From Octopus vulgaris (taxonomy: Eukaryota): a DNA stretch of 64,000 bases. This document shows, piece after piece, positions 3,718 to 62,591 of this stretch (position 1 is its first letter; the number at the start of each line of letters is the position of its first letter). The stretch is taken from assembly GCA_951406725.2 (NCBI GenBank), contig OX597823.1, forward strand, positions 94,984,001 to 95,048,000, in the 5' to 3' direction. A model generated the notes under the pieces. It had not been told where the DNA came from. It did not search any database and saw only the letters and a program-made list of their open reading frames with translations. The position numbers and the translations under genes are program-made.

Positions 3718-4098
3718 TTATTATAACTGAGTTTGTTTCAATATTAAGATTGAAAAAAGATTGAATTCATTTTATAAAATATTTTGGACCTGGGTTTGCA
3801 CCCCTAGGCAAATTTCATTCCTTCACTTATGCCACCCAGAATATTTTGTGTGGAGGGACTTTGTTGTAAAGATTGTTTTCAAGAATTAGTCTCAGAATCT
3901 TTTCTGACCCAGGAGTTATATTGGAAAGATTATCAATAACCATTGCCAGAACACTTCACGCTATGGCGACAATGTCTTGGAACCACAATCAATATCCAGT
4001 TCCAACATGCATTGCATCATAGAGATGTACTTTTGTAGAAAACTCTATCAATAAAACCCTAGAACTTATTCCATTTTCTTCACTCTTTCATCCTCCAT

Positions 4099-4372
4099 AT
4101 ACCCAGATATCTCCCTGGATAAGATGGTGTCTATTCCCAGATATCTCGCTGGATAAGATGGTGTCTATACCCAGATATCTCTCTGGATAAGATGGTGTCT
4201 ATACCCAGATATCACCCTGGATAAGATGGTGTCTGTACCCAGATATCTCCCTGGATAAGATGGTGTCTATACTTAGATATCTCCCTGGATAAGATGGTGT
4301 CTGTACTCAGACATCTCCCTGGATAAAATGGTGTCTATACACAGATATCTCCCTGGATAAGATGGTGTCTAT
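4099..4372. repeat. Minisatellite, 34-bp unit x8
   Basis: Unit TACCCAGATATCTCCCTGGATAAGATGGTGTCTA recurs every 34 nt with no spacers. Confidence 0.95.
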
Positions 4373-11588: not shown

Positions 11589-11679
11589 CTAGGAAAATAT
11601 ACAAAATAGGTTTCTTTGATCTTTCATTTAAATTTAGTTACATCTTCTGTGGCGTCACCCTAAGAAGCTTGCTTCTCAA

Positions 11680-11850
11680 CCATTTCGCCTGAAATATAAA
11701 TAGGGTCTGAAGACTTTCGTCCTGGAATATAAGATGTTTCTCAGGTCAAGAGACTTCTTTAATATTCTCGCCCGTTCCGCTATGCACAGCTTGCAACTAC
11801 ATTGATGTAGGGCACCATTTTTTCTAGGATCTGCCTTGTGAATACCTATG
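11680..11850 (-). mobile_element. PLE GIY-YIG C-terminal remnant
   Basis: CSCKLCIAERARILKKSLDLRNILYSRTKVF resembles the CxLC..E...I...LN.R.E tail also seen at 25850-27050. Confidence 0.45.
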
Positions 11851-12242
11851 GAGTCCCTTCGTCCTTCGGCGTCACGGCTGGCCAAAGACATGGCATAACG
11901 TCTTCCCGGGATCCTTAACGAGGACTCGTGGTTGGAGAGGCGCTGCTTGAAGGTGTTTCCGGAACGTCCGATATATTTTTGAATGCTGCTATTGCCGTCG
12001 CTGCTTCTGGTGATGTTGTTGACACTGTTACTTCAGCTGTTGTCGGCGCTGGTGTTGGCGTCGTTAATGCTGGTGTAGGGGACATCATCAGTGGCGAAGT
12101 TGGTGTTGGTGCTGTTGTTGTCATTGTTCGCGTCTCCGTTGGTGTTGCTACAACCATCGTCGATGTTGGAGCCGTTGTCTGCGCTATAGTGGTTGTAGTT
12201 ATTCTTGTTGTTTTTGTTATCATTATAAGCATTATCATTAAT

Positions 12243-12470
12243 GCGGCGACCTGGCAGAATCGTTAGCACGCCGGGCGAAATGCGTACCCGTATTTCGTTT
12301 GCCGTTACGTTCTGAGTTCAAATTCCGTCGAGGTCGGCTTTGCCTTTCATCCTTTCGGGGTCGATTAAATAAGTACCAGTTACGCGCTGGGGTCGATGTA
12401 ATCGACTCAATCCCTTACCCTAAATTTCAGGCCTTATGCTTAAAGTAGAAATTATTATTATTATTATTAT
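12243..12470 (+). mobile_element. tRNA-derived SINE family 1
   Basis: A-box (TGGCAGAATCG), B-box (GAGTTCAAATTCC), central GCCTTTCATCCTTTCGGGGTCGAT..AAATAAGTACCAG block and (ATT)n tail. Other copies at ~37520-37720(+), 37740-38440(-, split), 40683-40897(-), 45083-45290(+) and ~59990-60100(-). Confidence 0.85.
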
Positions 12471-12609
12471 CATTAGCGAGCGTGCTGCTGCTATTTCTGG
12501 TCTAGTTGCTGCCGTGGCTATTATTAATAACAGCGATGGTGTTGCTGCTGGGTCTGTTACTGCCGTAATTGCTGGAAGAGTTTCTGCTGCTGTTAGGGTC
12601 AGGTAGTAC

Positions 12610-13000
12610 TTCACTAACGTAACGTAACAGGCACCTATGCCAATGGCATGGTTTTCACATAACTGGCACCCGTGCCAGGGCCACGTAAAAGGCACCTTTC
12701 GAGTGTTGAGGCTCAAGAGGGCAATGGCAAATGACCGAGCCCTTTGGCAATATGTTGTATTTGAGTAGAAGACCCATCAAGCAAAATGAAATCGTAATCG
12801 TGGCAGATACTAGTGCCATGCAACTGGCACGTAAAAGCACCCGTTACACTCTTGGAGTGGTTGACGTTAGGTAGGACATCCAGCCATAGAAACCATATCA
12901 AATCACACAGGAGTTTGGTTCAGCCCCTCAACTTAGCAGCCTTGGTCAAACGGACCAACCTATGCCATGGACAATAGACGTTAAATGATGATGATGACGA
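12610..13000 (+). mobile_element. RTE-type LINE 3'UTR fragment
   Basis: Matches the 3' end of the RTE at 46185-46500 and ends in a (TGA)n tail. A similar fragment lies at ~13850-14050. Confidence 0.75.
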
Positions 13001-13329
13001 TGCCACTTCAGCCTCGTACACGACCCACTTAGTTTCACACTGGCCTCCCACTGACCATCTGCTGTAGTCCCTGCATGTGCATTCTGCTACCGCTTGTGCT
13101 CTACGGGTGTTAACTAAAGTATTCTTAATACTGGGGGTGCAGCTAAAAGAGAGACTCTTAGGTTGTGTCAGTTGAATAGGAGTCCATACCTATGCGATAG
13201 TGTAAAGGGCCTATCTACTAGCCTAAGGAATATCCTATCTGGGTAACCCTATGAACTGGCCATAACTAACTTTCTCCTGTTCTATAACACAGAGCGTGCT
13301 TATCTTTCGGATTTATGATTTATTGACGA

Positions 13330-13710
13330 TATGGCTGTGTGGTAAGTAGCTTGCTTACCAACCACATGGTTTCGGGTTCAGTCCCACCGCTTGGCACCTT
13401 GGGCAAGTGTCTTCTACTATAACCTCAGGCCAACCAAAGCCTTGTGAGCGGATTTGGTAGACGGAAACTGCAAGAAGCCCGTCGTATATGTGTGTGTAAA
13501 TGTTCGTGTGTCTGTGTTTGTCACCCCGTCGTTGCTTGACAACCGATGTTGGTGTGTTTACATCCCCATAAGTCAGCGGTTCGGCAAAAGATACCGATAG
13601 AATAAGAATAAGGTTTACAAAGTGTAAATCCTAGGATCGATTTGTTCGACTAAAAGCGGTGCTCCAGTATGGCTGCAGTAAATGACTAAAGCATATAAAA
13701 GAATAATAGA
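13330..13710 (+). mobile_element. tRNA-derived SINE family 2 (CORE-like)
   Basis: GGCTGTGTGGTAAG...GGGTTCAGTCCC head, ACCTTGGGCAAGT core, internal (TG)n and a CAGCATGGCCGCAGTC...TGACTGAAAC tail. Other full or partial copies at ~5455, 6660-6865, 16680-16860, 17120-17415, 17510-17735(-), 25060-25240, 25350-25690(-), 29820-30220(-), 32320-32500, 56640-56860(-), 57400-57510(-) and 63345-63515. Confidence 0.85.
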
Positions 13711-14071
13711 ATATATATGTATATATATATAATACACACACATACTTACACAAACATATGTATGTATGTATGTATGTATGTAGGTAGGTAGGTGTGTAAG
13801 TAGGTAGGCATGTGTATGCGCGTGTGCAGTGTGTATGTGTGTTTCCTTGTCTAGACATCAATGATGGTTGTAAATGAGAATCACCAACATACGAGAGGGG
13901 TTGTTTGTTTCCATTCAGTCTTCCATGGAAGATGTTGACTATGAGAACTTGCTTGGAAATGGGTGAGGGCATCTGGCCGTAGAAAATTATTGCCGCAAAT
14001 TCCGCCTGATTCATTTAAGCATGGAAATATGGACATTAAATGATGACGATTTATATTCCACACAAGATCTA

Positions 14072-14126
<55 letters not shown>

Positions 14127-14455
14127 ACACATGTATATATATATATATATATACGCAATGTTGTCTGTAGCATTTTAAAATCACAGCCTTCTCTCTTTCT
14201 TCAATTCAAAGTGAATGAATGAGCACCAACAATTATTTGAATTTAAAATAAAGAAATTCTATCCATTGTCCAAGAAGACGAACGTGTCGATGTTGTTGTA
14301 TTCCTAATCTTCAGACGGCGAAAGGAAAGTAAGGAACAATGAGTACCACTCAAATACATTTTTAAAAAATGGTTAAAACTGAGATTTCTAAAGGAGAATT
14401 TTATAAAACATTACACAAATATGTAAAATTTCGATCAATCTATCTTTCGTCATCG

Positions 14456-14492
<37 letters not shown>

Positions 14493-14639
14493 GTCTTTAT
14501 CTGTAGAAAGAAAAAACAAAATGAAAGAAATATCTTTCTATTCTACTTTTAAACCAAACTTATTTAAGCTGTTTTTCAGACATTTTATTTATTTTATTTT
14601 ATACAGATTATCTAAAGCTGTTTCAAGTGTGTATATTAA

Positions 14640-15385
14640 TTTAAAAACCTGAGCATAGCGATTTAGACATGTCTCGAATTTTAAAAGTTGCCAGATCAAC
14701 TAGAATGCATAAAAAGCATCAGAACACCTGAATTTATCCAGCAAGTTCAACAGACCATTGTTTACAATCCCAGAAAGTCCATAATGTCAATTGCGAAAGA
14801 TCTCCATGTTTCAGAAGAAACAGTAAGAAATGCTGCCCACGGAGACATCAGATATAAGTCTTATATGATGAAGAAAGATAAATTCGTCCGAAAAAGCAGA
14901 AGAAAGTCACTACATCAGATCTAAAAGACTCTTAAAACTGCAGCAGAAGATTTGATTTGGTTTTTCTCAAACGAGAAAAACTTCGACTAAGATGAAAAAC
15001 GTTAAGAGAAGAAATAACAAATAGTTATGTGCAGACCCTTCTGAAGCTACAAATGTTAAGCATACAAAATTTCCTGCAACTGTCATGGGTTTAGGCGTCG
15101 TCAGCAATGAAGGATATGTGATTCCCCCTTACTTCTTTCCACAAGGCTTTAGAGTTAACTCTGTCGCCTACATTGAGATCCTGGAAATAATTGTTATGCT
15201 CTGGATAGACAGTGCATACAATGGAAGGCCATATGTGTTTCAGTAAGACTTTGCACTATATATAACACATGGCTCTAGTAGCTCAAGAATGGATGACTGA
15301 AAATTTTCATGATCACATAACCCTTAACATTTGGCCTCTTCATTCCCCAGATCTCAATCCATTGGACTATTACATGTGGAGCGTT

Positions 15386-15439
<54 letters not shown>

Positions 15440-15700
15440 CAATGAACACGCCCATAACACCGACGATTCTTTGAAAGATACCATAATCAGAGTAATGTCC
15501 AAAATGAACCAGGACCACTTGATTCGAGCATGTAGATGATTTAGATCTCATATAGAAGCAGCTCTTGAAGCTGAAGGTTGCCGTATTGAATAACATTATA
15601 GAAAAGGTTTATTTTTTATCCCGCATAGCATTTTTTGATAAAGTTATCTGTTATGATATCTGCTTTTTTTAAACATAAATCTGCCCTCAAATATCTTACA
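14640..15700 (+). mobile_element. Tc1/mariner DD37D (maT-like) transposon, decayed
   Basis: NPRKSIMSIAKDLHVS, WFFSNEKNF, KFPATVMGLGVVSNEG and WPLHSPDLNPLDYYMW motifs with stops and frameshifts; (GA)n expansion inside. Confidence 0.8.
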
Positions 15701-16125
15701 GACAGACAGACAGACAAATACACACACACACACACACACACACACATATGTAAGATAGCTGAGGAAACTAGAGCATGCAGGTCATTCGCCAACGCAGAAA
15801 AGGTGGTCAGTGATGCCTTACTCTTACTTTAGCGCTAACAATATCATGGCATTCGAAGAAAACACAACCCGGTTCTCGCCAAGCAAATCAAAGCCAAGCT
15901 TTTAATCAGAGCAATCACTGTAAAGAGTTAACTCATACATCTTAGTCCCTCTCAACCAGCGAGCATTTACGAATGTATTCATGTTCATTCTCCCATTAAA
16001 TAAATCTTAAGTTAAATGTTTGTGATTTTTGCTTGTGTTTGTAATATACTCAATCAGCCGAATCTCATGCTACGACTGATACAACAATTACACCTGGATA
16101 TTTATATTCTTAGGGCCAGCCTACA

Positions 16126-16495
16126 TAGAGTACAAACGATACAGAAAATTATAGGGGTGGAAGAAAGTCCAACAGCTGTTTCTGGGGGCTCAGAGATCCT
16201 TAATAATGTTGGTAGATTTAGTTCATCCCAATTTTAGTCGTGTGTATGCAATTACACCTTCCGTCTTCAGAGTAGAGAAGAACTTACATTCCAGATCTTA
16301 ATGCAGGCAAGTTCAGATCTCTAACCTGATGACGGATGCCCCTCTCGACCAATGTTAAATTGCATCCATTATGGGTGCACATTATGATGAACTAAATCTA
16401 CCAGCATTATTATGGAGCTCCAAGCCCGAGAAACAGCTGTTGGACTTATAACACCTTTCTTTCACATCTTTAATTTTCTCTGTCGTTTGTACTCT
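16126..16495. repeat. Diverged inverted repeat with degenerate HHR 3' half
   Basis: 16126-16192 is the reverse complement of ~16420-16495. Both arms contain GAAACAGCTGTTGGA, and CTGATGA occurs at 16326. Confidence 0.5.
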
Positions 16496-18041
16496 GTGTA
16501 ATATAGATGTCTATACATTTATACATAAAAATTCATATGATGAAAACTTCCACCTTTTGCTTTCTCTCATTTTGCAAATATACATATTTTGTATTTGAGG
16601 GAAGATAGAGTAGAAGAGTGAGAGGTTAATGATGCATGTGTGCGTGTGTGTGTGTTGTGCGTGTGTGTGTGTGTTTGTCCTGCATCACCGCTTGTCAACC
16701 AGCGTTGGAATGTTTGAGTCCTCGTAATATAGCCGTTCAGCAAAAGGGTCCGATAGAATAAGTATCAGGTTTCATATAAGCACTGGGAAAGAATCATATG
16801 ATTCTTCAAGGTAGTACCCCAGCATGGCCACAGTCTTATGACTGAAATAAGTAGAAGAAAAAACACTGCATTATAAATATTGTCACAAAAGGATTAACTC
16901 GGGTCTAATAGAGTAGATATGGTGGATTATCGTGGCATAAGGAATACGATTGGCCATTTATTATGCTACTATTTCCCTACATTATGAGATCTAGTTGTGC
17001 TTCCTCAGGCGATATGTAAATATTATCTCCGAAAGTTAAATTACGGAGTTGAACTTGTAGTGATAAAAAAAAATGTCCAGCCGTATTCCTTCGTGTTGAC
17101 GCTAATTCTTTTCAATTATACAGGCACAGGAGTGGCTGTGTGGTAAGAAGCTTGCTTCCCAACCACATGTTTCAAGGTTCAGTCCCTCTGCGTGGCACCT
17201 TGGGAAAGTGCCTTCTACTATAGCCTCGAACCGACCAAAGCTTTGCAAGTGGATTTGATTTGGTAGACAGAACTGAAAGAATCCCGTCATATATATGTAT
17301 ATATGTATTTGAGTGTCGGTGTTTGTCCCCCCCTCATCGCTTGACCACCAGTGCTGGTGTGTTTACCGATAGAATAAGTACTAGTCTAAGAAAGAATAAG
17401 TCCTGGGGTCGATTCAGATTACTCTCTCAAATCTCATGCAGATTTATTCACATTGCTTTGAATTAATCCTGGGATTATCCTTTAGCTTCCAGATTTCATT
17501 GATATGATTTCTCTTTTATTTCTTCCCTTGTTTTACTCATCAGATGCTGGCCATGCTGGGGCACCACCTTGGATTTTTTTAGTGGAATGAACCAATCCTG
17601 GTATTTACAGTTTTTTCTTTTAAGCTTGGTACTTATTTTATCAGTTCCTTTTGCTGAACCGCTAAGATACAAGGATGTAAACATACAAACACCAGTTGTC
17701 TAGTGACTGTAGAACACAGACACAGACACAGAGACATGGATATATATATATATATATATAAATAATTAATTAATAAGGGTGAGAGAATTAGATACTAATT
17801 TAATAGTATATCTATTCAACACCAAGTGGCCCAGTGCTCCGAGAAACCTGGATTATTATAATATTTTATAATATATTATAATATTTTTACAAAAATAAAT
17901 ATAAGAGAGTGGTCACTATATGGCTCACTCTAGCACTAGTTAATCCAAAAGGTTTCAACCACAAAAATATATGTTTCCCATGAAAGTCAGTACGATTGTT
18001 AGCTCACACGAACAGGGCAAATAAAAAATAACAAAAATACA

Positions 18042-18133
18042 GATTATTTTGGGACAATTGTTTCGCTATTAATGAATTAAATGTAATTTTACTTACAAAA
18101 AAATCCACTTGTAGCTCCTCAGCCAAAACTATC
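18042..18133 (-). ncRNA. Type I hammerhead ribozyme, inverted copy (sense to gene A pre-mRNA)
   Basis: Exact reverse complement of 18201-18292. Confidence 0.9.
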
Positions 18134-18200
18134 TGGATGAACCACACGTGTATTTATCGTTATGGTAAAATCTGGCGTGTGATTGAGTGGATTTCATCCA

Positions 18201-18292
18201 GATAGTTTTGGCTGAGGAGCTACAAGTGGATTTTTTTGTAAGTAAAATTACATTTAATTCATTAATAGCGAAACAATTGTCCCAAAATAATC
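18201..18292 (+). ncRNA. Type I hammerhead ribozyme, copy 1
   Basis: Stem I TTTTGG/CCAAAA, core CTGAGGA (18212-18218), stem II GCTA/TAGC, GAAA, palindromic CAATTG, GTC cleavage after 18281. Confidence 0.9.
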
Positions 18293-18735
18293 TGTATTTT
18301 TGTTATTTTTTATTTGCCCTGTTCGTGTGAGCTAACAATCGTACTGACTTTCATGGGAAACATATATTTTTGTGGTTGAAACCTTTTGGATTAACTAGTG
18401 CTAGAGTGAGCCATATAGTGACCACTCTCTTATATTTATTTTTGTAAAAATATTATAATATATTATAAAATATTATAATAATCCAGGTTTCTCGGAGCAC
18501 TGGGCCACTTGGTGTTGAATAGATATACTATTAAATTAGTATCTAATTCTCTCACCCTTATTAATTAATTATAATTATGCTACATTTATTTCTAAATGTA
18601 GTATTTGTTCCCGTGTGAGTTTGGCGCGCTGTTAGTAGGGGCATTTTAATTATAACGTCGGATGTAATCAATTGAACCACACGTGTATTTATCGTTATGG
18701 TAAAATCTGGCGTGTGATTGAGTGGATTTCATCCA

Positions 18736-18827
18736 GATAGTTTTGGCTGAGGAGCTACAAGTGGATTTTTTTGTAAGTAAAATTACATTTAATTCATTAA
18801 TAGCGAAACAATTGTCCCAAAATAATC
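18736..18827 (+). ncRNA. Type I hammerhead ribozyme, copy 2
   Basis: Identical to 18201-18292; predicted cleavage after 18816. Confidence 0.9.
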
Positions 18828-18977
18828 TGTATTTTTGTTATTTTTTATTTGCCCTGTTCGTGTGAGCTAACAATCGTACTGACTTTCATGGGAAACATAT
18901 ATTTTTGTGGTTGAAACCTTTTGGATTAACTAGTGCTAGAGTGAGCCATATAGTGACCACTCTCTTATATTTATTTT

Positions 18978-19017
<40 letters not shown>

Positions 19018-19020
<3 letters not shown>

Positions 19021-19788
19021 AGAGAAATAATATTCTTAAGATTATAATTCCGGTAAAGTACAGGACAAGATATTACACTTGGAAAAGTTCAGGGCAGATT
19101 ATTACATCTGGTAGAGTACAGAATAAGAACATTTTTACTTAAAATATTGCAGCTAAGTATAAAATTTGAATATTAAAAATTATTTGATTTTAATTTACAA
19201 AGTAACTTCATAATTAAAAAAGGTACCATCATTTTGTTAAAATATTGACACACTAGAATACTTAAAATATGAGAAACAGAAGTACCAATATAACTAAAGT
19301 TTTATGCAAAGTAGACTAGTATATATGGTAGGTATATATTCATTATATAAAAGATAGGGATTGGGTCAAGACTAAAAATGTGAAGACTTGGCAATAACTT
19401 AGGCAATAACTCGAGCAAATTTTACTTGCATTTGTTGCTATAGGTAGAATTTACTGCAACATATAACTAATTATTACTATTCTAGTTACTGTACTAATTA
19501 TGTACTACTATTATTTTTTATAACCTATTTTCAAATTTCTGATTATTAATTAGAAGTAACAAGTAATAAGAAATCGAAGTAATAACTTGTAAAAAAATTT
19601 AAATTTTAATAAAAGCTAATATTTTCTAAATCTAAATATTTTATTCGAAATTTTATCCTTAGCCGCAATATTTCTAGTAAAACGTTTCTTGTTCTGTACT
19701 TTACCAGATGTAAATAAGTTGTACTGAACTTTTCCAAGTGTCCTGTAATTTTCCAAGTTTATAATCTTAAGAATATTATTTCTCTTGC
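19018..19788. repeat. AT-rich element with ~170-bp diverged terminal inverted repeats
   Basis: GCAAGAGAAATAATATTCTTAAGATTATAA at 19018 and its exact reverse complement ending at 19788; similarity continues over ~19018-19190 vs 19620-19788. Confidence 0.75.
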
Positions 19789-19998
19789 TCGCATTTTTCC
19801 ATGTAACACACACGCACGCACACACATTCACACATACACCCATGATGATGGTGGGTGTTGGAGTGAGAAAGATTTTTAACCCCAATCAATAAAAGAAAAG
19901 TGTCTCAAGGAATTTTTGTTTTGAAGCACAACCATTTCAACCACCTACCTGAACTACATAATAATAATAATAAGAAGAAATCATTATTATAAGCTTAC

Positions 19999-23723: not shown

Positions 23724-24257
23724 CACTGGTGGTGATATTTATAACGAATATTCGCTACCCTATTTATGTAGCTTATGAATATATTCTTAGCATTCTCGAA
23801 GATTTAGATCGGCATTGTATTTATTGCCGACTGTAAATGCGCCTGCGCGCGGAATTTTGAAAAATTATAACATATAATGACGGGACACGTGTTATCTTGT
23901 CTCTGAATTATAAGTTAGTTATTGAGGCCGGTTACTGACGAGAATTCGCCTGGCGGATAATATTGTTTTGCTAAATTACCTATTAAAGTATGGCAAACAA
24001 TCTTATTTGGTAAAGAAATTCGAAACCATAGTATAACCGCTAATAAAAATAACAAGATAAACGTTTTTATTTTTCATTTACTTCAAAAATTGTTATTAAA
24101 TCGTGCTCTTGGCCGTGTTGGCTGCTACTTCTAGCATGTAAAAAATACCTGTTAAAGGGTAGTTTTCTTTTGTGTTTAAATGTACGCTATTTTAAACTAT
24201 GAATATGTTGTCTATTGACTATTTATACACGCTAGGCCACTGGTGGTGATATTTATA
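23724..24257 (+). mobile_element. 514-nt non-coding HHR monomer with 20-bp terminal direct repeat
   Basis: CACTGGTGGTGATATTTATA at 23724 and 24238; HHR at 23929-24039; embedded in (TA)n. Confidence 0.8.
23929..24039 (+). ncRNA. Type I hammerhead ribozyme
   Basis: Stem I CGGTTA/TAACCG, CTGACGA (23935-23941), stem II GAATT/AATTC, GAAA, C-CATA-G, GTA cleavage after 24033. Confidence 0.85.
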
Positions 24258-24339
<82 letters not shown>

Positions 24340-24349
24340 TATATGTATA

Positions 24350-24860
24350 TAAATTACATTCGAAAATTTTCCAGAAAATCCAGCATATACCCCGGGCTTA
24401 TACATTCTAATTTTTCAAATCTACCGCGCAAACAGCCGGCATTTTATTTACCGCCGTCAAGGAGCCGCGCTTGCGCGGTAGATTTGAAAAGTTAGAATGT
24501 ATAAGTACGGGGCATATACTGGATTGCCTCGTGTATATATATTCTATCTAAGGTGTACCTGCTGAAGAAGACTTCACCTAGCAAATTATTTTATTTGCTA
24601 AAAAAAGTCTGAAATCATTGGTCCAGTGTTAGATGGTAAATACTTTTATTTTTCATTCCTTTCGAAATTTTATCCCTAATATTGGTTTGGAAATTAACTG
24701 TCTTCTCTAGCGTGTAAGGAATCCTGTGATGGATGCTTGTTCTGTGTTTAAATGTACACTGTATTTATATGAATAATATATAGTCTATTGACTAAATTGT
24801 TTTACACTTTTAGCCACTGGTAATGGAAATTTCAAATATTTCTGATTACCCTTTGACATT
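24350..24860 (+). mobile_element. Diverged relative of the 23724-24257 element, with inverted arm and HHR
   Basis: Inverted repeat 24377-24431/24471-24525. Shares TGTGTTTAAATGTAC, GTCTATTGACTA and GCCACTGGT blocks with the neighbouring element. Confidence 0.7.
24557..24629 (+). ncRNA. Type I hammerhead ribozyme
   Basis: CTGAAGA (24562-24568), stem II AGACTT/AAGTCT with inner TAGCAAAT/ATTTGCTA hairpin, GAAA, TCATTGG, GTC cleavage after 24623, stem I CTG/CAG. Confidence 0.7.
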
Positions 24861-24894
24861 ATTAGTTATATATATTCATACATACATATATACA

Positions 24895-49100: not shown

Positions 49101-50570
49101 TTGATAGGTTATCAGATGGCTGTCTGGCTTCCTGAAGTTAGTGTTGCAGATTAAAAGGTTACATGCATCACAGAACTCCAGTTACCTGTTTCCCTCATCG
49201 TTTCGGGTGCCAATTCCATGGTCACCATGTACCCCAGTGAAGATACCAGATTGCTGCCCAACATGCCCATTAAAGTCTTCAGCCACAAAGATGAGGTCAT
49301 TGCCACTAGTCGTTGAGGTAGCCTGTAGAAGGGTATCATAAAAGTGGTCCTTCTGATCATTTGCTAGCGCTACAAGTGGGGTGTAGGCGGAGATAATTGT
49401 AGCTGTGCTGTTCTGCAGGACTAGCCTGAGCTTAAGCACCCTATCACATACCCTAACAACCTCTATGACTCTATCCACCCATTTCGCCGCAAGGAGTATG
49501 CCTACACCCCCTACACCATCCATGTTACCTTGCCAGAAGACTTTATACCTATGTGCCTTGCCTGTGAGGACCCTAGCTGAAGCTCCTCTTCATCTTACCT
49601 CTTGTATGCAGCATACATCAACCCGTCTCCTTTCAAGCATCTCTACAATCTCACTAGACCTACCTTTCAGTGTGCCAACATTGACAGTGCCAACTCTGAA
49701 AAGTGGAAAGGGAATGTGGGGTGAGGTTTGGGGAGGAGGGATGTTATTCAGCGCCTGAAAAGGAGAGGGAGGTTGTTTTAGTGTTCGTTTTTTAGGCATG
49801 CTTCATGTGTTCTCTCTTCCGACCTGACAGCATTCAAGCATTCAAGCATGTTAAGATCATTGTCCCTACTGGAGGTAGGAGACGGTGTTAGCAGCGTTGT
49901 TAGCATAAACATTATGGTCATCAAATGATGTAGATTTAAGCAGTGTAGCAAAAATATGAATATTCCAATGTTAGGTTAGGAGGGAGTTAGCTAAAACTGG
50001 TGGCGTTTGTCTAGGAAGGGGGGAATTGCAGGTATAATGGAGGCTACCACCAGAGGGGAAGGGTTCAGACAGAGAGAGGAAACCGGCTCATTCCTATAAA
50101 TACACAAGCGCATTCACACTCAGGAACAAGCACACATGGACAGCCGAATAGCTTTCTCCTTCACTTGATAAGGCCAAGGAAAACTTCATGGGTAGTTGTT
50201 GGCATGTTTCTTCATAGAAATGAGAATGAAACGAAAGATAGCCGGTTAAGTAGGTGGGCAGATAACCTAGTTGCGTTTGTCCCAGTAGAGAGATGGAGAA
50301 AAAGAGGGCGAGAGATAGAGAAAGAGAGAGTGCAGGTAATATAGGGAACAGCACCAGTGAGGAGGGGGAATTGGGAGAAGAGAAATTTGGTAGTGGTGGT
50401 GACAAATTTCTAGACAGAAAGAAACGTAAGATAGCCGGTTAAGTGGGTGGGTGGACGAGCAGCTGGGATGGTTGCATTTGCCCTAGGAGAGAGAGAAGTG
50501 CAGGTAATATATAGAGAACATCCCAGTGAGGAGGAGGGGTTGGGAGAATAGTCACAGGTAACGGTGGTGG
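46183..50570 (-). mobile_element. RTE-clade LINE, near full length, multiple disruptions
   Basis: APE motifs VGTVNVGTL..CCIQEVR, GVGILL and DFNGHVG. RT motifs KAPGPSGI, NYRG.KLL, QFGF..RSTTDAIF and DDLAL; (TGA)n-like 3' tail at ~46183. The 5' boundary is uncertain. Confidence 0.9.
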
Positions 50571-50575
50571 AAGAA

Positions 50576-50845
50576 GGGATATCCGGTGTAGATGGTGAGC
50601 AGATTGAGATATCCGGTATTGGTGTTGGGAAGATAGAGATATCCGGTATTGGTGGTGGGAAAATAGAGATATCCGGTATTGGTGGTGGGAAGATAGAGAT
50701 ATCCGGTATTGGTGGTGGGAAAATAGAGATATCCGGTATTGGTGGTGGGAAGATAGAGATATCCGGTATTGGTGGTGGGAAGATAGAGATATCCGATATT
50801 GGTGGTGGGAAGATAGAGATATCCGGTATTGGTGGTGGGGGCGGG
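50576..50845. repeat. G-rich minisatellite, 30-bp unit x8-9
   Basis: Unit GAGATATCCGGTATTGGTGGTGGGAAGATA recurs every 30 nt. Confidence 0.95.
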
Positions 50846-62364: not shown

Positions 62365-62591
62365 CTTTTGTGCCATAGAGGACGGGAAATATCGCAGCAA
62401 TACAAGTGACTCCAGCCAAAACCATCTGGCTACTATGCAATTTTTTTCTTCCGATACGATTTAACAGAAGGAGGCACAGAATGTAGGCCGGAAACTCGAC
62501 AACCGAATTAAAAAAAAAATTCATATAGAAATTGCCATACAATTTGCCGACATTAAGAGTAAGGCCGAAATATACCATGCTCACAACCACC
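62365..62591 (-). CDS. SLC22-like transporter gene B, internal exon (TM7-TM9); gene begins beyond right edge
   Basis: tttctatag| acceptor and G|GTAAAC donor; 227 nt, phase 2->1. VVVSMVYFGLTLNVGKLYGNFYMNFFFNSVVEFPAY...NRIGRKK is typical of the SLC22 C-terminal half. Confidence 0.93.

Follow-up and report, generated by a model that had tools for sequence, protein, structure and literature searches.

The window analysed here, a 64,000-nt stretch of the Octopus vulgaris genome (contig OX597823.1, positions 94,984,001 to 95,048,000), contains an insert in which direct and inverted copies of a 535-nt unit with hammerhead motifs lie side by side at 17762–18978. This raises the questions of what kind of element the insert represents, which form of RNA it was copied from and which enzyme copied it. 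A sequence-only reading had proposed a recent retrozyme without a protein of its own, mobilised by Penelope-like elements (PLEs). We examined the insert, its relatives across the genome and the PLEs that could have acted as its helper.

The insert combines tandem and inverted copies of a ribozyme-bearing unit

The insert is enclosed by two (TA)n tracts (17740–17761 and 18979–19017). The left tract is followed by an inverted arm on the minus strand (17762–18141, unit bases 56–435), which is the exact reverse complement of 18193–18572 over 380 nt, with 51 nt between the arms. On the plus strand, a full unit, permuted as at this locus (18138–18672), is continued by a partial second unit of 306 nt (18673–18978), and the exact identity of the latter with 18138–18443 sets the period at 535 nt. 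All of this had been described correctly. The arms meet head-to-head at a 4-nt overlap of microhomology (18138–18141). Two sites define the outer 3' ends: a "short" site (unit ~303–309; 18440–18446, +), used in the second unit copy at 18978, and a "long" site (unit ~433–436; 18570–18573, +), used by the inverted arm, whose outer end abuts the left (TA)n tract at 17762. We take them to be the putative first and second start sites of reverse transcription. The short end is bracketed by a conserved 7-bp helix, P1, whose 5' strand (18396–18402, +) pairs with 18496–18502; its 3' strand and the adjoining CCAC(T)TGGT motif, which is common to sister families, occupy 18496–18513 (+).

Type I hammerhead motifs start at 18212 and 18747 on the plus strand (ribozymes at 18206–18287 and 18741–18822), as had been noticed, and at 18122 on the minus strand, within the inverted arm (18047–18128), where a third copy had been overlooked. 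Judged by the motif, cleavage would take place after 18281, 18816 and, in the third copy, 18053; the first two predicted cuts lie 535 nt apart and would release a monomer of that length (18282–18816, +). The first ribozyme is composed of a 6-bp stem I, CUGAGGA, a 4-bp stem II with a 44-nt loop, GAAA, a 2-bp stem III with an AAUU tetraloop, and GUC. The circularised monomer has a calculated folding energy of −137.9 kcal/mol (z = −5.2 against 40 shuffles), and the predicted fold of the unit contains stems I and II. The palindromic tetraloop of stem III could, by calculation, pair between two copies (−7.8 kcal/mol). The idea that such ribozymes cleave as dimers may not apply, as a 2-bp stem III with a tetraloop corresponds to the invertebrate type that the available text of PMC7229834 reports as an efficient cleaver; for frog retrozymes, cleavage of one of nine dimers is reported (10.64898/2026.07.22.740005, available text).

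The proposed comparison with the Rfam hammerhead models failed: there were no matches at the gathering threshold over the whole window, and at E ≤ 10 (17700–19100) the hammerhead stayed unscored and only hairpin-type chance matches from the inverted repeat appeared. This is likely explained by the 44-nt loop of stem II. The ribozyme assignment draws instead on the motif, the predicted fold and conservation across families. The insert at 17762–18978 may itself be a poor source of monomers because a transcript containing the inverted arm would pair with the first ribozyme and mask it. As had been claimed, the insert is non-coding: the longest ATG-started frames in the circularised unit reach 13 aa (+) and 28 aa (−), and a single open reading frame with reverse transcriptase (RT) and C-terminal GIY-YIG endonuclease is absent from it. 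It differs from plant LTR retrozymes, described as elements whose unique inner region lies between LTRs with a type III hammerhead and which have a 4-bp target site duplication (10.64898/2026.07.22.740005, available text), in its type I motif and head-to-tail units.

The insert is a young copy of a dispersed non-LTR retrozyme family

A 22-mer from the 3' side of the ribozyme occurs 2,134 times in the genome as an exact match (1092 + 1042; reversed control, 0), the intact ribozyme-core pattern 2,054 times, and the exact junction of the long end with TA 861 times (control, 0). Family copies are 94–99% identical to the insert at 17762–18978, and the unit length of 531–536 nt is constant across contigs. 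We examined 66 insertions, 33 of which represent an unselected run along one contig and 33 the best matches. Their size ranges from 0.6 to 13.3 units, and the usual target site is a (TA)n tract; one insertion (L004) lies outside a TA tract and shows a 9-bp target duplication. The head-to-head inverted build recurs in 39 of the 66 loci with differing junctions. A coding frame joined to the family unit was found in none of them, which upholds the view that the insert is not the pLTR of a coding element. Hydra-clade PLE fragments flank two of these insertions (L011 and L072), unjoined to the retrozyme unit.

The family thus consists of tandem units that each carry a complete type I hammerhead motif, has no coding capacity, is dispersed in many copies from monomers to multimers and shares its genome with autonomous PLEs. 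These are characteristics of non-LTR retrozymes, and the insert is a young copy of such a family, present at many hundreds of sites. The proposal of a recent, dispersed, protein-free family of tandem hammerheads with the insertion marks of PLEs was borne out. Its novelty has to be narrowed: the class is already described, and a link to PLEs has been proposed in print (PMC7229834; 10.64898/2026.07.22.740005, available text of both). In the literature searched, which includes few subscription journals and whose supplements may list octopus families, we found no cephalopod retrozyme; 235 hammerhead hits have been counted in the giant squid (PMC6962438, available text), and a 2026 octopus repeat annotation mentions neither ribozymes nor retrozymes in its text and supplement (PMC13282606). 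The description of the insert as pristine is accurate in that its copies are exact, but this is unremarkable, as the same internal homogeneity is seen at many other loci.

Contigs from all four runs presumed to be RNA include the unit; these contigs come without strand, ends, level or a silent control, and the coverage is neutral with respect to expression. One 565-nt contig (run X11) self-closes at the unit period, as tandem DNA would do as well.

Sister families share the end module and helix P1

Five further non-coding families (R2–R6) that share the end motif, have units of ~470–570 nt and occur as tandem or inverted copies were reached via weak matches or, for R6, via patterns combining the motif with a frame (R2, R3, R5 and R6 loci: L155–L170, L172–L190 and L216–L249). 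R3 and R4 retain the hammerhead core, and the sequences of their stems I and II differ yet still pair. The R2 and R5 copies examined are more decayed, and no intact hammerhead core was found in the two R6 loci examined. R3 has a GUU cut triplet and often occurs as very short head-to-head insertions. R4 has 2,201 first-look candidates and copies that are 88–94% identical; one copy with a ~514-nt unit and the same end module lies in the window at 23860–24265 (+; ribozyme core at 23935). A remnant of the shared end motif that resembles R5 is present at about 24770–24870 (+).

RNAalifold, applied to 19 hand-picked sequences of the 535-nt family and R2–R5, identified P1 as a 7-bp helix around the short end in which four pairs have changed on both sides. 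Its positions pair in 98.5% of cells, a level reached by 0 of 500 shuffles and compared with at most 46% in slid controls; the covariation amounts to a handful of events on the family tree and not to 18 independent ones.

Inverted insertions have one short and one long end

Outer 3' ends cluster at unit base ~305 (short) or ~436 (long), ~130 nt apart. Inverted insertions combined one short with one long end in 36 of 39 cases; three were irregular (L002, L094 and L095), and none had two ends of the same kind. Thirty-two of the 36 were counted by script and four (L011, L066, L080 and L093), in which a short or diverged arm had been dropped, were added manually; the end class "460" was counted with the 436 ends, which it represents with TA sequence appended. 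Inspection by eye of the first 100 of the 861 long ends revealed no head-to-head pair of two long ends.

The longer arm was of one kind in 14 and of the other in 19 inverted loci. Models in which a single cDNA folds back, in either direction, left 6 of 32 inverted loci unexplained, with L031 and L071 being weak cases among the six. We therefore rejected fold-back as the general source of the inverted arm; that either arm can be the longer and that these loci fit neither direction suggest that both arms are likely primed on RNA. The 5' ends were slightly enriched at the priming sites (9 versus 4.5 expected, p = 0.035; 6 versus 3.3, p = 0.11), a signal that we set aside, as TA microhomology can account for it. 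In PLEs, a pair of internal start sites has been described, as has a tail that may be present on one inverted pLTR (PMC11167929; PMC3846280, available text), while the strict one-of-each rule is absent from these sources as far as consulted. The rule likely records how PLE enzymes copy RNA.

Each insertion carries one haplotype

At unmasked sites, divergence was 0.49% between tandem units and 0.32% between arms, values that may be lowered by assembly polishing, compared with a mean of 3.0% between loci; the nearest other locus lay at a median of 0.55%. Considering each site in each locus as a cell, 368 cells were fixed for a non-majority allele versus 161 that were polymorphic, and 117 of the 133 polymorphic cells with at least three copies were singletons. 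Subfamily alleles were fixed in all units of a locus. Nineteen private variants, each restricted to a single locus, were fixed in all copies there, some of them across both arms, with 11 of the 19 located on the stretch from the cut to the long end. The two arms agreed in 832 of 835 comparisons at 35 subfamily-diagnostic sites, where 234 disagreements would be expected at random. L078, with both arms multi-unit, showed no difference among 14 segments. Because the units and both arms share one haplotype, each insertion was likely made via a single RNA monomer.

The ribozyme cut site was crossed by 91 of 104 arms, with 212 crossings in total, and 5' ends at the cut were as frequent as expected (2 versus 2.1). 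Crossing of the predicted cut implies that the template was either a ligated circle or an uncut RNA. Rolling copying of a ligated monomer circle, as proposed earlier (PMC4209133; PMC7229834, available text), would be the simplest account of both the haplotype and the crossing data.

Some loci require more. In L082 (site 180) and L086 (site 40), a variant is common to both outermost units and missing from all inner units, which a pure monomer circle cannot produce; overall, 2 outer-unit variants were shared versus 29 single ones (6,076 sites). L081 (G000:C28:10731200-10740500) is a 12-unit array in which two subfamily haplotypes are mixed and a higher-order repeat of 4 units is present; different RNAs that were ligated or between which the enzyme switched templates could account for it, as could later duplication of DNA. 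Six further loci contain one or two multi-copy variants. A U4-to-C change in the ribozyme core is fixed in all copies of L072 and L074, and multi-unit, inverted insertions were still formed. The nearest neighbour of a long copy was found in another locus for 22 of 142 copies, with 36 ties, so the youngest haplotypes are not separated. Some templates thus exceeded one unit, and a linear template with jumps stays a real rival. Inherited variants leaned towards A>G/T>C (29/65 versus 37/161, p = 0.002), a trend that was set aside as its polarity was taken from the family majority allele.

Hydra-clade PLEs are the likely helper

A degraded Hydra-clade PLE with RT and GIY-YIG remnants and several stops and frameshifts lies in the window from 26972 to about 29600 (−). 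Using it as query, we scored 136 of 12,926 candidates and found intact Hydra families. Many have open frames of ~800–1090 aa, and DKT, a CxCX5C-type linker and (TA)n sites agree with the description of the clade in the available text of PMC8557442; Pfam recognised none of the three frames tested. The loci inspected (L108–L150) represent several Hydra-clade families, some of them arrayed in tandem as near-identical copies (L132, with a period of about 3.6 kb).

The hammerheads of these elements have the same build as that of the 535-nt unit, with a 50–60-nt loop II and a 6-nt palindromic stem III. Six of seven inverted pairs combined short and long ends, 89–155 nt apart, and the seventh lay inside a larger inverted duplication. 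The insert family, in turn, displays the Hydra-clade traits of (TA)n insertion, a canonical hammerhead motif, a partial tandem/inverted structure and a tail at one end. In 50 coding-PLE loci, the best match to the unit was ~78–80% over 44–49 nt on the 3' side of the ribozyme, and the end module was found neither there nor in the degraded Hydra element of the window. Patterns combining the end motif with a Hydra-type N-terminal motif gave 4 and 11 matches versus 1 and 4 in controls. Two such matches were ruled out as partner candidates when they turned out to belong to another non-coding family, and three weak-match leads were discarded likewise, having led only to non-coding families. Based on behaviour and not on sequence, a Hydra-clade PLE is the likely helper of the 535-nt family.

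For the Poseidon PLE PAc, two internal start sites and nicking of both strands have been found in vitro, and a dimer has been predicted; ribozyme cleavage was dispensable, with uncut RNA as the main substrate (PMC11167929). Retrozyme RNA circles have been demonstrated in mussel, coral and axolotl (PMC7229834, available text).

A working model and its alternatives

We consider it more likely than not that the insert is a young copy of a dispersed protein-free family for which a single, probably circular, RNA monomer was copied by the RT/endonuclease of a Hydra-clade PLE, a reading to which we assign a probability of roughly 60%. A tandem locus would be transcribed, its ribozymes would excise the 535-nt monomer, and a host ligase would close it into a circle. 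A PLE protein dimer would then nick a (TA)n tract on both strands; of the resulting DNA ends, one would prime synthesis at the short site within helix P1 and the second at the long site on the same RNA, and each enzyme could run for 0.1 to more than 10 turns. Joining of the two cDNA 5' ends by microhomology would yield the head-to-head form, and loss of one arm the plain tandem form.

Keeping the same element and helper, the template could instead be an uncut linear RNA, either a multimer or a 1.x-mer with repeated jump-back via its terminal redundancy, while the ribozyme acts elsewhere or never. We consider this unlikely on balance, although the outer-only variants of L082 and L086, the mosaic in L081, the arrays still made by the U4-to-C subfamily and the preference of PAc for uncut RNA in vitro (PMC11167929) all speak for it, and the absent pile-up of 5' ends at the cut fits it as well. 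The two outer-only cases are far outnumbered by the 19 private variants that are fixed up to and including the outer units, and variants are about as frequent in outer as in inner units (0.25% versus 0.20%, p = 0.21). Moreover, arrays could only become shorter if linear templates were the sole route, whereas insertions of up to 13 units exist, and the ribozyme core and paired stems are retained across sister families despite differing stem sequences. Quite improbable, in our judgement, is that the units are pLTR fragments of a still hidden autonomous PLE whose arrays grew in DNA after insertion through unequal crossover and concerted evolution. Such a model has been proposed for frog retrozymes (10.64898/2026.07.22.740005, available text), the 4-unit duplication in L081 shows that growth at the DNA level is possible, and the search for a partner covered the 136 scored candidates out of 12,926. 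However, no joined frame was seen in the 66 loci, including the 33 unselected ones; the few motif-plus-frame matches (4 and 11 versus 1 and 4) included two that proved non-coding on examination; both arms are often multi-unit and identical, as in L078; and the unit length stays at 531–536 nt across contigs.

That the helper belongs to another (TA)n-targeting clade, Neptune or Naiad, appears very improbable. A Hydra partner sharing sequence with the family was not found in a search confined to Hydra candidates, and the available text of PMC8557442 describes a preference of Naiads for (TA)n and proposes a microsatellite bias of Neptune; but the ribozyme build and the 89–155-nt end offset match Hydra families in the octopus genome, and Naiads are described in that text as having no canonical hammerheads and being present as remnants in cephalopods. 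An assembly artefact behind the inversion and duplication would fit the perfect identity of the three assembled copies; with head-to-head structures in 39 of 66 loci that differ in their junctions, carry locus-specific haplotypes and obey the short/long rule, it is hardly credible.

Beyond the working model, we tentatively suggest a wider reading, which we do not favour as it stands: that at least six ribozyme RNA circles (470–570 nt) form an old, independent clade in the octopus, having lost all sequence in common with their helper but kept a conserved helix-bounded priming module, on which a PLE RT dimer starts two cDNAs, one per strand and site, while rolling around one circle. If true, ~1,000 young insertions would document in a genome, for the first time, that a telomerase-related enzyme performs rolling-circle twin priming, and the tandems, inversions and tails of PLEs would be explained in one step.

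Host gene context and significance

Exons 20141–19980 and 11590–11363 of an organic cation transporter (SLC22-like) gene enclose the insert, which lies in the first coding intron (11591–19979, −); the closest named proteins are from Octopus species. Exons of two tandem SLC22-like genes are located at 62590–56127 and 20141–729 (−), and the insert would place a 380-bp perfect hairpin and one sense ribozyme in the first intron of the second gene. In general, head-to-head copies put long perfect hairpins into host introns. A MITE-like element of 770 bp (19018–19788) adjoins the right side of the insert; its terminal inverted repeats are long and imperfect, and its interior contains 29-nt repeats. 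Minisatellites are present at 4098–4372 (34 nt, 8 copies) and 50563–50839 (30 nt, 9 copies).

The origin of tandem and inverted PLE insertions is stated as unresolved in the available text of PMC8557442, and mobilisation of retrozyme circles by PLEs is treated as proposed and undemonstrated in that of PMC7229834 and 10.64898/2026.07.22.740005. The octopus family brings together, within one genome, a template of small size, a pair of start sites that have been mapped, a conserved helix that can be mutated and intact candidate helpers. Any model has to reproduce two rules: each insertion has a single haplotype, and a short end is paired with a long one. How PLEs copy and how retrozymes are mobilised thereby become testable in a published in vitro format.

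Comparison with known systems

Like the animal non-LTR retrozymes (Cervera & de la Pena 2020, PMC7229834; Li, Clavereau & Pollet 2026, 10.64898/2026.07.22.740005, available text of both), the family has non-coding units that are arrayed in tandem and contain a single type I hammerhead, a low GC content and thousands of copies, and it shares its genome with PLEs. Its unit falls inside the 51–972 bp range of retrozymes (10.64898/2026.07.22.740005) but is longer than the ~170–400 nt units of mussel, coral and axolotl (PMC7229834) and has a 44-nt loop II. For animal retrozymes, the texts consulted mention neither head-to-head inverted arms nor two fixed 3' ends. Whereas frog families have a sister pLTR of a coding PLE, none was found for the octopus family, and whereas RNA circles have been demonstrated for animal retrozymes, those of the octopus family are putative. 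In Chlamydomonas, MRC1 and further Chlamys PLEs (PMC8557442, available text) are likewise non-autonomous and multicopy, with head-to-tail insertions and a pLTR structure, but their 3' ends are similar to those of the autonomous partner, and Chlamys elements are mostly without hammerheads.

With Hydra-clade PLEs (PMC8557442, available text), the family has in common insertion into (TA)n, a canonical hammerhead, tandem and inverted insertions and a tail at one end; with the intact Hydra members of the octopus genome, it shares the ribozyme build and the asymmetry of ends. Unlike them, the octopus unit has no RT/endonuclease frame, its end module occurs in no sampled coding family, and its tail measures ~130 nt compared with 30–40 bp for PLEs generally. 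For Poseidon PAc of the green anole (Frangieh et al. 2024, PMC11167929), strands did not differ visibly in their start sites in vitro and ribozyme cleavage was dispensable, whereas the arms of one octopus insertion use different sites and the octopus RNA encodes nothing. In both systems, the spacing of two internal RT start sites, putative in the octopus family, corresponds to the tail, and nicking and extension of both target strands by a predicted dimer in PAc parallel the priming of two arms proposed here.
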